This document shows, piece after piece, positions 36,148-38,042 of a stretch of 64,000 nt of DNA; position 1 is the first letter of the stretch; each line of letters opens with the position of its first letter. The translations under genes and the position numbers were made by a program. Source of the DNA: Candidatus Heimdallarchaeota archaeon (GTDB taxonomy: Archaea > Asgardarchaeota > Heimdallarchaeia > Heimdallarchaeales > Heimdallarchaeaceae). Where the stretch lies: contig JAHLWR010000009.1 in assembly GCA_019057815.1 (NCBI GenBank), positions 32,001 to 96,000 of the forward strand. Reading direction: 5' to 3'. Under the pieces are notes generated by a model. That model did not search any database. It saw only the letters and a list, made by a program, of their open reading frames with translations, and had not been told where the DNA came from.

Positions 36148-36200
36148 ATTTTATTATATATTTTTACTATCTTAAAAAAATTGTGAATGTACTTATGAGT

Positions 36201-36420
36201 TATTTTCCCCACTTTTCCCAGATTGAAGGAAAGTGGAAGACAATTTTGAGGACTCTTCCCAACCCAGGAACGTTTAAGGTCGCATAGCATCAAGCAGTAG
36301 CTTAGGGAGCTTCAAGCTCTGGGATTACACCTCCAACACACAGTGTTAACAGAGGTGAGGGGGTTCATCTCCTCACCGGGACTCATTACTGGAGACTTAT
36401 GTTATTGAGAACCTTAGGTA
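36201..36420 (-). ncRNA. Putative omega-RNA (TnpB guide RNA scaffold plus guide)
   Basis: GC-rich hairpins directly 3' of tnpB; TTCAA on the minus strand at 36227-36223, as at IS605-type right ends. Boundaries approximate. Confidence 0.55.
36202..36224. repeat. Inverted repeat, tnpB-downstream copy
   Basis: attttccccacttttcccagatt; 22/23 match to the reverse complement of 37941-37963. Confidence 0.9.
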
Positions 36421-37893
36421 CTCACTCCAGCTCCGGGGGTAAGCAGATGACTCTGCTTTGTCTGTAGCCATTGGCTCAAGACAGGGAAGACACGAAAAGA
36501 ACTGAGTGGAAAGAACTTTCCACTAACATGGTCTTTAATGGAGTTATATTTTGGTTGCAGAACGTATTTTATCAGTCTTTTAGCTATATTTTTCGCTCCA
36601 TTTAAGTCTGCATTAAGGTTATACCCACAAGTGTTGCAGATGAATGTAGGTTGGTTGGGACGGATAGTGTGATAGGATTCACAACGAGAACAGTAAGAAG
36701 AGGTCCACGATTCACTGATTGTTAGTATCCTATGCTCCTCCCATCCCTGTAAAGAGAGCTTGAATTTGAGTAATTCTGCCACTCTCCTGTAATTCCATTT
36801 GTGGATACTTTTACGGGAACGAGGGTGGAAGTTACCTCTGAAGTGGCTCTTACGGATATGAAAGGGGAAACCTACAACCACGTAGAGATCATATCTCTTA
36901 CCAACAGAGAGTATATATTTTACTAACTTATTGACATAGGTGTGGTCAGTTAGTTTATATTCAGTTCTTTCTCTCTTTCTGAGTTGTTTTAGTTGGTGGA
37001 GAAGATTTTTTTCTCTTGTTTACAGTCAAGCTAGTTTTAGCTAAAATTTTCTGCAGTTCAGTTATTTTTCTTTCTTTTTCCTTTTGCAATTTTTTTCGTG
37101 TCTTATCAGACCAGAATCTGATCTCATGACGGTTGATAACTCCCTTCGGAGTTAAGAGTGCACTTACTGCACGTTTGTTGATTCCTAAATCTATCCCCAG
37201 CACAGCTGGAGGACGAGGAGAAGCATACTTTTCTGGAATGTGAAGCAAGATGAAATGTACCCACCATTCCTTCTTCATTGGGTAGTAGAGCACTTCGAGT
37301 GCCTGTAATTTCCCTTGTTGTAGGTTATATTCATGATAAGGGGAACAAGCGAGAGGTAACCACAATTTCTCGTGTATGTGAGTTTTGTTCTTCTTTGTAT
37401 CAAAGGAGTCTCTTATCCCTACCCACCATCGGGCAATGGAGTTGGAAGGAGAACAAGTAAGAATAAACCTTTTACTATGGGCTAGCTGTGTACGGGGGAT
37501 TTTTTTTAGTGGAGGATTCTTAGCAGGAGCTGAATTGTTTGCTTGTTGACTGTGGTAGATAGCTACAGCATTCTCTCTACATTCCTGTAACTCATTCTGG
37601 GAGCAGCGAGGAAAGCTCTTTTTCAAATCATGTCTAACTGTAAGTCGATTGTGTAGTTTATTCTTCTTATATGTGGTAAGAGTATGATGGTCTAGTTTTG
37701 CTTTACTCACCTTCTTCTTTCCCTTCTTTTTGTTTACTAGTTGCTCTTCATTGTGATAGATCACTCTTAGGTACTGCTTAATTATTCTTGTATCTCTTCC
37801 CGTAATTTGCTCTAGTCTCTTTCTTTTCCGTGTTGTGATTACTTCTGCTTTAATTCTCACTTTTACAGTCGTTCTCACCCCACTTCTCGTCAT
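36414..37893 (-). pseudogene. tnpB: TnpB RNA-guided nuclease (about 492 aa when repaired), single frameshift in A7 run at 37006-37012
   Basis: RuvC-I VLGIDLG; VVVG and SESWTS; zinc finger CSRC/CNTC; RuvC-III NADLNGAKNI. Removing one A joins ORFs 36961-37893 and 36414-36881 via KRKNLLHQLKQLRKRERTEYKLTDHTYVNKLVKY. Confidence 0.85.
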
Positions 37894-37923
37894 TCTTGAA
37901 TCATTATTTCTATTAGATTTTCC

Positions 37924-37931
37924 TATAAAAA
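37924..37931 (-). promoter_or_regulatory. Putative TATA box of tnpB
   Basis: TTTTTATA on the minus strand about 30 bp upstream of ATG 37893. Confidence 0.5.
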
Positions 37932-37940
37932 GCTAACTAG

Positions 37941-37963
37941 AATGTGGGAAAAGTGGGGAAAAT
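37941..37963. repeat. Inverted repeat, tnpB-upstream copy
   Basis: aatgtgggaaaagtggggaaaat. Confidence 0.9.
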
Positions 37964-38042
37964 CAACCATGCATATTAGTGTTATAAAAATATACAAGCA
38001 AAACAATAAATTTTATAAAATACTTCGTTACAAATCATTTTA

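Follow-up and report, generated by a model that had tools for sequence, protein, structure and literature searches.

The window, by which we mean the whole 64,000-nt stretch of DNA that was analysed, contains between positions 36195 and 37970 an element in which a broken tnpB gene and a predicted guide-RNA scaffold lie between terminal inverted repeats (TIRs), and comparison among genomes identified it as a decayed member of a non-autonomous family of Heimdallarchaeia, of the OMEGA type (TnpB plus guide RNA), that is present in multiple copies. A first-pass annotation of the same DNA, made from the sequence, had proposed a TIR-bounded, TnpB-carrying element without a transposase in an Asgard archaeon, and every coordinate that it gave for the repeats holds: positions 36202-36224 (ATTTTCCCCACTTTTCCCAGATT) and 37941-37963 are reverse-complementary at 22 of 23 positions when the sequence is read directly, looser symmetry extends outwards to 36195 and 37970, and inner partial copies of the motif stand at 36228-36236 (GGAAAGTGG) and 37878-37888 (CCCCACTTCTC). 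In a repeat search the inverted pair widened to 30 nt at each end (87%; Table 1), and neither open reading frame (ORF) nor profile searches found a transposase ORF between the repeats at 36195-37970, in agreement with the earlier statement that no TnpA is present. Judged by itself, the window repeat is borderline against chance in AT-rich DNA: its best 30-nt inverted match is 26/30, and 60 first-order Markov resamples averaged 22.1 and reached 26 at most. What is decisive is the comparative evidence, namely 11 copies with shared ends and unrelated flanks.

The window's genome (G000; 3.7 Mb, 48 contigs) carries these 11 family copies, five of them full (about 1,775 nt, at 88-90% identity) and six of them mini copies (about 355 nt) in which the first 290 nt, on the right-end (RE) side, are fused to the last ~65-69 nt, on the left-end (LE) side. 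All 11 start with ATGAGTTATTTT(T/C)CCCAC and end with GGGGAAAAAnnAnCAT, exactly at the outer coordinates of the first-pass annotation, and all have imperfect TIRs of 25-30 nt, while their flanks are unrelated. The repeat is thus kept inside copies with different flanks, the observation by which a true TIR was to be recognised; it is not unique to this locus, as it would have been had the proposal failed, and the 11 copies bear out the transposase-free, TIR-bounded element. An intact 492-aa tnpB is present in three full copies (contigs C10, C39 and C40 of G000) and in an orthologous copy in a sister genome of the same genus (G001), relative to which the window gene is frameshifted by one additional A in the A-run at 37012. 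The closest public records are 'Candidatus Heimdallarchaeota' metagenome-assembled genomes (MAGs), and the assignment of the host to the Asgard archaea stands.

The target of insertion could be read directly from three exact pairs of empty and occupied sites in G000 and G001 (G000 C5 empty, G001 C17 occupied; G001 C195 empty, G000 C38 occupied; G001 C119 empty, G000 C1 occupied). In the tnpB sense, CAT is found once in each empty site and once at each junction when the site is occupied (3/3), and the junction trinucleotide (ATG...CAT) is present at both ends of 11/11 copies. In the left flank the bases before AT are A in 8/11 copies and W (A or T), R (purine) and C in 11/11 each, with R at -4 and C at -1 in every copy, whereas the first base beyond the right end is G in nine copies and A in two, so that most sites read CATG. 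The target is RCAT(G/a), constrained mainly on the LE side. The CAT at each junction is either a duplication of 3 bp (or of 2 bp, as AT) or a shared crossover core; because the target is invariant, a duplication is inseparable from a shared core or from an RE that ends in the target motif. The earlier statement that there is no target-site duplication (TSD) has to be amended to this extent, as the window copy does repeat ATG, by duplication or as a shared core, at 36195-36197 and 37969-37971, and the three empty sites have it once.

Further junctions were sought among the relatives. No site orthologous to the G000 C24 copy was found in G001, junctions in more distant relatives were unreadable because the flanks are too diverged, and the ends of single copies in G018, G010 and in Thor and Loki genomes could not be delimited. 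At G000 C9:56171-56525 a mini copy replaces about 420 nt of a gene that are present in G001 (L066:1551-1970, contig C7), and the missing stretch is bounded exactly by two CATG sites, both intact in G001; this element-associated deletion would fit two CATG-directed events with recombination afterwards. The gene hit by the deletion is histidine-phosphatase-like, as judged by eye. We are highly confident that the family is real, bounded by TIRs, targeted to CAT and equipped with TnpB only.

Relatives of the TnpB were detected in 19 of 41 related genomes, and the named homologues all belong to Heimdall-, Thor- or Lokiarchaeota. Two closed genomes, G004 and G007 (by their proteins, Ca. Heimdallarchaeum aukensis and Ca. 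Heimdallarchaeum endolithica, the latter being G007), hold 14-19 copies of a sister subfamily at ~44% protein identity, with 14 copies plus mini copies in G004. Their layout is flank-CATG...CAT-(G/A), with TIRs and with mini copies of ~385 nt that are up to 99.7% identical (99-99.7% in G007), and only one of 18 tnpB copies in the two genomes has an internal stop; a TAG apparently inside many of them was an artefact of alignments that overran the start codon. The repeat core reads TTTTTTACGTAA in the sister subfamily versus CCCCACTTTTCCC in the window family. The same plan with a changed core at 44% identity means that the repeats co-vary, and that the inverted ends are a maintained feature.

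Moreover, at least two other TnpB families of G000 (419-427 aa) have inverted repeats, with ends ATG...CAT or TAT...ATA, and the TIR-type families resemble one another in their outer 12-15 nt (ATG, 4-7 nt, T-run). As far as the sequences indicate, the inverted-end architecture is a guild-wide trait in G000, which also holds a family with classic ends (Table 1). The notion that a TIR element had captured a TnpB is a conjecture; several TnpB families of this genome have the same end architecture, which may be the ancestral life-style of the clade rather than the product of capture.

As regards the protein, the only Pfam match was the TNB domain (PF07282, 47 bits), and the NCBIfam model guided_TnpB scored 63.8 bits, under its cut-off of 100. 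The D-E-D triad (D235, E394 and D429) and the four cysteines of the C4 zinc ribbon are invariant in 24 homologues, and RuvC-I reads GIDLG (DLG, not DPG). At the canonical RuvC-II glutamate position there is an R, with E394 six residues ahead of the CxxC in the motif E394-SWTSSC-C401xxC404. Such a relocated RuvC-II glutamate (Ealt), set six residues ahead of the zinc finger, has been defined for Fanzors and a minority of TnpBs (PMC10711439), and by its sequence the protein is to be read as a divergent TnpB with a Fanzor-type alternative RuvC-II glutamate. For an AlphaFold2 model with a mean predicted local distance difference test score (pLDDT) of 80.5, the top Foldseek matches were all Cas12f, TnpB or Fanzor2 (E down to 8e-16), and the predicted nuclease looks active.

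The 290-nt RE block has 70 consensus base pairs, 13 of them with compensatory changes, in an alignment of 24 sequences (minimum free energy z = -3.2), and no Rfam family matched it. In its last hairpin the inner portion of the TIR pairs with the inner partial copy already flagged by the first-pass annotation, and the pairing is preserved by compensatory changes between full and mini copies. In the RNA model the RE tip, AACUCAU, pairs with an internal AUGAGU, a pairing in which the G010 copy has a G-C to A-U swap (read by eye). Similarly, in Fanzor1 and IS607 RNAs the TIR, the TSD or the base of the right flank belongs to the scaffold (PMC10711439). Mini copies place the TATA-like box of the LE directly upstream of the RNA scaffold, so that they would be promoter-plus-guide-RNA elements. 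The LE-side flank bias (A-W-R-C-A-T) is best read as the predicted transposon-adjacent motif (TAM) of TnpB. A guide inside the element, in the ~35-nt variable stretch after GCUUGAAAC, was considered and rejected, as this stretch is still homologous between copies at different loci and is a variable stem. Solo right-end remnants of ~40-50 nt (TIR plus hairpin), with no element body, also occur in G000 at C27:90264-90313 and C19:25549-25590.

Table 1. Features of the window copy (positions in the window), and loci of other TnpB families and of the giant ORF mentioned in the text
Feature	Position	Strand	Remarks
RE terminal inverted repeat	36195..36224	-	tnpB sense ...TGGGAAAAGTGGGGAAAATAACTCAT; doubles as 3' end of the guide-RNA scaffold
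LE terminal inverted repeat	37941..37970	-	tnpB sense ATGGTTGATTTTCCCCACTTTTCCCACATT
RE junction trinucleotide ATG (CAT in tnpB sense)	36195..36197	.	at both junctions in 11/11 copies; single in empty sites
LE junction trinucleotide ATG (CAT in tnpB sense)	37969..37971	.	G at 37971 target-derived or duplicated copy
tnpB, broken	36414..37893	-	split into 36961-37893 (310 aa) and 36414-36881
Omega/right-end-element RNA (reRNA)-like structured RNA scaffold, ~290 nt	36195..36484	-	overlaps final ~70 nt of tnpB; kept by mini copies
RE subterminal hairpin	36209..36236	-	CCACTTTCC / GGAAAAGTGG in tnpB sense; inner TIR part plus inner inverted partial copy
TATA-like box, archaeal, putative	37922..37933	-	GCTTTTTATAGG in tnpB sense; ~30 nt upstream of tnpB ATG at 37893 (sequence reading)
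LE segment, ~69 nt (TIR plus promoter)	37902..37970	-	in 355-nt mini copies, fused to 36195-36484
Other TnpB families, TIR-type	G000 C1:106681, C33:135761, C44:26481, C31:18798, C46:37245, C12:127808		
TnpB family with classic ends, 410 aa	G000 C4:58849, C33:119894		canonical RuvC-II glutamate; asymmetric IS605 ends with hairpins
Giant-ORF loci	L146:4574-11811, L147:2114-9365, also L094; G032 C389, C565; G039 C137, C206, C262		

Among known systems, TnpB-only IS200/IS605 elements have been described to 'lack TIRs and TSDs' (PMC3627910, PMC13565253). By its TIRs, and by its junction repeat if that is a duplication, the present family departs from two defining features of the IS200/IS605 and IS607 groups. 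Prokaryotic TnpBs in TIR transposons have been reported in association with DDE transposases (IS630, ISL2, IS1031), with tyrosine recombinases and with Asgard Cas1, as well as solo (Altae-Tran et al. 2023, PMC10691335). The family shares with them symmetric inverted ends, a tnpB 3' end no more than ~250 bp from the end of the transposon, solo copies whose movement is presumed to occur in trans, and a very short junction repeat, which may be a duplication; it differs in that no DDE or other transposase with the family's TIRs was found and in its non-palindromic CAT target with an LE-side bias. Hence the TIR element announced by the first-pass annotation is real, whereas its novelty was overstated, as TIR-type TnpBs, solo and Asgard groups included, had been published (PMC10691335). 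What is new here is a CAT target proved by empty sites, TIRs that co-vary across subfamilies, the combination with Ealt in Heimdallarchaeia and the lack of a known partner in closed genomes.

By analogy, the closest functional counterpart would be the solo Fanzor1 element SPu-1, a single ORF between 33-bp TIRs with a TA duplication (Bao & Jurka 2013, PMC3627910). As in Fanzor1 solo elements, one RNA-guided nuclease gene with Ealt lies between TIRs, next to a fixed junction repeat of 2-3 bp and with no internal transposase, and the guide-RNA scaffold incorporates both the TIR and the junction repeat (PMC10711439). Unlike Fanzor1, the host is archaeal, RuvC-I reads DLG and not DPG, the 492-aa protein has none of the Fanzor1 insertions and its nearest folds are Cas12f and TnpB rather than Fanzor.

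In this context, we lean, by a narrow preference, towards a TIR-bounded, CAT-targeting family of TnpB plus guide RNA that moves in trans as double-stranded DNA; for the trans, double-strand mechanism taken on its own, the chances appear even. The symmetric, co-varying ends, together with a core common to the joined ends (T-CAT-G) and the target (R-CAT-G), point to a double-strand, probably scarless, trans reaction. An enzyme encoded outside the element would act on it in trans, recognizing the CAT(G) core together with both symmetric ends in double-stranded form, and the reaction would most likely be conservative, either scarless and recombinase-type or a precise cut-and-paste, and not the single-strand pathway of Y1 TnpA. 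For TnpB and its RNA, the TAM would be the left-flank motif with CAT at its end, and the guide would come from the DNA just past the right end; emptied sites would then be cut by the TnpB-RNA complex and the element restored by homing, as in IS605, IS607 and Fanzor systems.

A number of observations weigh against this double-strand picture. The target flanks are asymmetric, unlike the prediction for a purely symmetric transposase; full copies are only 80-93% alike, which implies that movement is rare; and since the RE tip pairs within the RNA model, the conservation of the ends may partly serve the RNA and not a transposase. Furthermore, no partner transposase was found, in a search that took in only a handful of transposase families. 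In all genomes and metagenome contigs examined, no copy had any gene besides tnpB, and TIR searches of G000, G004, G007 and the metagenomes found neither a transposase flanked by the same TIRs, which the first-pass annotation had proposed to look for, nor any TIR pair enclosing something other than tnpB or the mini core, four solo matches in G004 being uninspected. A search of metagenome contigs with the RE repeat gave nine matches, which were five ordinary family members and four chance matches in genes, and viral contigs held no relatives.

The mobile elements resident in these genomes also failed to supply the enzyme. An IS5-like DDE element of ~1.0-1.1 kb (TIR AAGCATGTCC(C)AAAA; L118:1096-2099 in G007 and L120:1183-2271 on G000 C33) was rejected as mobiliser because its TIRs differ and its target duplication is 6 bp; G007 has 31 DDE_Tnp_1 matches, about 25 of them near-identical, and DDE_Tnp_4 was not found. 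In the IS5 family, ISL2 and IS1031 produce target duplications of 2-3 bp. Cas1 was set aside likewise, as the two intact Cas1 genes of G000 lie in CRISPR adaptation modules and the third is a pseudogene, in G004 and G007 no TnpB copy has a Cas1 beside it, and several carrier genomes are without Cas1. The family resembles the Asgard Cas1-associated TnpBs (Cas1H-Asgard-1 and -2; PMC10691335) in being an Asgard-restricted TnpB clade of repeat-flanked elements, and differs from them in having no Cas1 beside any copy. Movement by host restriction and ligation at C^ATG would be an unlikely route as well, since it would leave the conserved, co-varying inverted repeats unexplained.

The double-strand picture has an IS607-like sub-variant, in which a serine recombinase would cross over at the AT/CAT core by way of a double-stranded circle; we consider it improbable. 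The joined ends would form a near-palindrome around C-AT-G (AAAATAACTC-AT-GGTTGATTTT), reminiscent of a recombinase core, and such a reaction would be scarless, as TnpB homing requires. As in IS607 (PMC10711439), one base largely prevails just after the RE, and imperfect inverted repeats occur near IS607 tips as well (PMC6188088). IS607-type recombinase genes are present in G000, G001, G006, G012 and G014; those of G000, however, carry stop codons and belong to a separate element with a 652-aa TnpB, and G004 has no IS607-type recombinase, its two serine recombinases being resolvase-like with a C-terminal tail. The serine recombinases of G007 are similar in length to these, their domain order being unchecked. 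Judging from G000 and G004, an IS607-type recombinase fails as the partner. The element itself contains no serine recombinase, and its repeats are terminal and its termini CAT, whereas described IS607 elements end in GG and are without terminal inverted repeats (PMC6188088). In addition, a 2-bp core alone does not explain the invariant C before AT in the LE flank. The 652-aa TnpB-like ORF of G000 lies at C27:145985-148548, directly downstream of a stop-bearing IS607-type recombinase gene, in a repeated unit of 2.2 kb with copies at C12:123977-126169 and C21:21461-23619.

We also weighed single-strand 'peel-and-paste' by Y1 TnpA, under which the family would be an IS1341-group derivative mobilised in trans, CAT would be the 3' end of the TAM with no duplication involved, and the apparent TIR would result from the guide-RNA hairpin and from resemblance between the recognition sequences of LE and RE; this seems rather unlikely. 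The family does resemble the IS1341 group of IS200/IS605 and its protein-less derivatives, namely palindrome-associated transposable elements (PATE) and stand-alone omega RNAs: tnpB is the sole gene, the RNA scaffold overlaps its 3' end and reaches the right end, a short fixed motif stands beside the left end, copies are old and diverged, and short derivatives keep the RNA and both ends. One CAT in the empty site and two in the occupied one would fit insertion 3' of a CAT motif by an element whose RE ends in CAT, the flanks are asymmetric with a constraint on the LE side only, a subterminal hairpin lies 14 nt from the RE tip, and G000 has two Y1 TnpA genes.

Nevertheless, unlike the IS1341 group, the family has TIRs and the target trinucleotide at both junctions, and no conserved LE hairpin was seen in the ~65 nt of LE that mini copies retain, judged by reading and not by folding. 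The motifs of LE and RE lie in inverted and not in direct orientation, and the 44%-identity subfamily shows them co-varying as inverted repeats. No matching Y1 TnpA was found even in the closed genomes. The ends of the IS605 elements resident in G000 are unrelated (TTTAC-type flank, CCATG../CCACCG.. hairpins), and the closed genome G004 has no Y1 TnpA in spite of its 14 copies and mini copies. In G007, a 376-nt mini copy of the sister subfamily interrupts the sole Y1 tnpA at codon 2-3 (L108:1880-2260; G007 C1, about 925,480-925,890), and yet the mini copies of this genome are 99-99.7% identical; deleting the insert in silico restores a TnpA of 131-132 aa. Across relatives, the presence of Y1 does not track the family, and Y1 TnpA was judged an unlikely partner.

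Prospects appear similarly poor for a self-sufficient element, in which TnpB and its RNA, perhaps with host repair or recombination, would cut and relocate the element, and a family-specific ribonucleoprotein would read the TIR, the RE repeat being part of the RNA and the LE repeat its complement. In its favour, the TIR cores differ by subfamily and change along with TnpB and the RNA, the RE repeat lies inside the RNA scaffold, several TnpB families, each with its own TIRs, coexist in one genome, and no partner gene was found in two closed genomes, although that search spanned only a handful of transposase families. The outer 12-15 nt are nonetheless similar across families, so that one common trans-acting enzyme could serve them all. 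To our knowledge, a RuvC nuclease has no strand-transfer activity, which also counts against self-sufficiency. There is no precedent for such movement either, TnpB being dispensable and insufficient for transposition (PMC3627910, PMC6188088, PMC13565253). Finally, the alternative offered by the first-pass annotation, that an IS605-like element had entered the centre of a pre-existing palindrome and that the 'TIR' is target DNA, is refuted to near certainty: the outer repeat halves do form a near-perfect palindrome when joined, but the element carries the repeats along into 11 unrelated loci, and what the three empty sites contain is a single CAT and no palindrome.

Cas12 and the eukaryotic Fanzors descend from TnpB, the way in which TnpB-only elements move is a long-standing question, and the hosts of this family belong to the archaeal lineage closest to eukaryotes. 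The family offers a clean test system: its boundaries are exact, three of its sites are known in the empty state, CAT is invariant, the inverted ends co-vary, mini copies of 355-385 nt were recently active, and in two closed host genomes the usual partners (Y1 TnpA and IS607 recombinase) are absent or broken. The occurrence of a Fanzor-type active site together with a Fanzor-type transposon architecture bears on the origin of that life-style, and a 492-aa nuclease with a ~290-nt RNA and a predicted ...RCAT TAM is a compact candidate for an editor. A bolder reading, which we offer as a long shot, is that the window family, its 44% sister and at least two more families make up a Heimdall-group guild of TnpB-only transposons, all with the Fanzor life-style (that is, inverted ends, a fixed junction repeat of 2-3 nt that forms part of the guide RNA, and a catalytic glutamate at the relocated position) and moved without a known TnpB partner. 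The mover of such a guild would be either a so far unrecognised class of transposase or the TnpB ribonucleoprotein itself, and if this were true, the TIR/TSD life-style seen in Fanzors would already have been present, before eukaryotes, in the archaea most closely related to them.

More distant TnpB homologues (33-40% identity), in Thor and Loki genomes and in genomes of other Heimdall orders, lie ~250 nt from, and divergent to, an ORF of 1,400-1,700 aa that has no Pfam, PADLOC or Atlas match and in which a PD-(D/E)xK-like motif (GRGRADLVVF...VFDIKT) was read by eye. In two genomes this giant ORF, the TnpB and a 205-aa ORF form a discrete 7.25-kb element (88% identity, unrelated flanks, asymmetric ends) with GGGTTCACTCACCC at its right end, where the motif GTTCACTCA is that of Asgard Cas1-TnpB loci (PMC10691335). 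The giant ORF is a candidate for a new transposase or partner; it is found neither in G000 nor in the genomes of the window's taxonomic family (0/24). In the window, the gene adjoining the element (35521-36147, minus strand) encodes a gelsolin-repeat protein, and proteins of this kind are a eukaryote-like signature typical of Asgard archaea.

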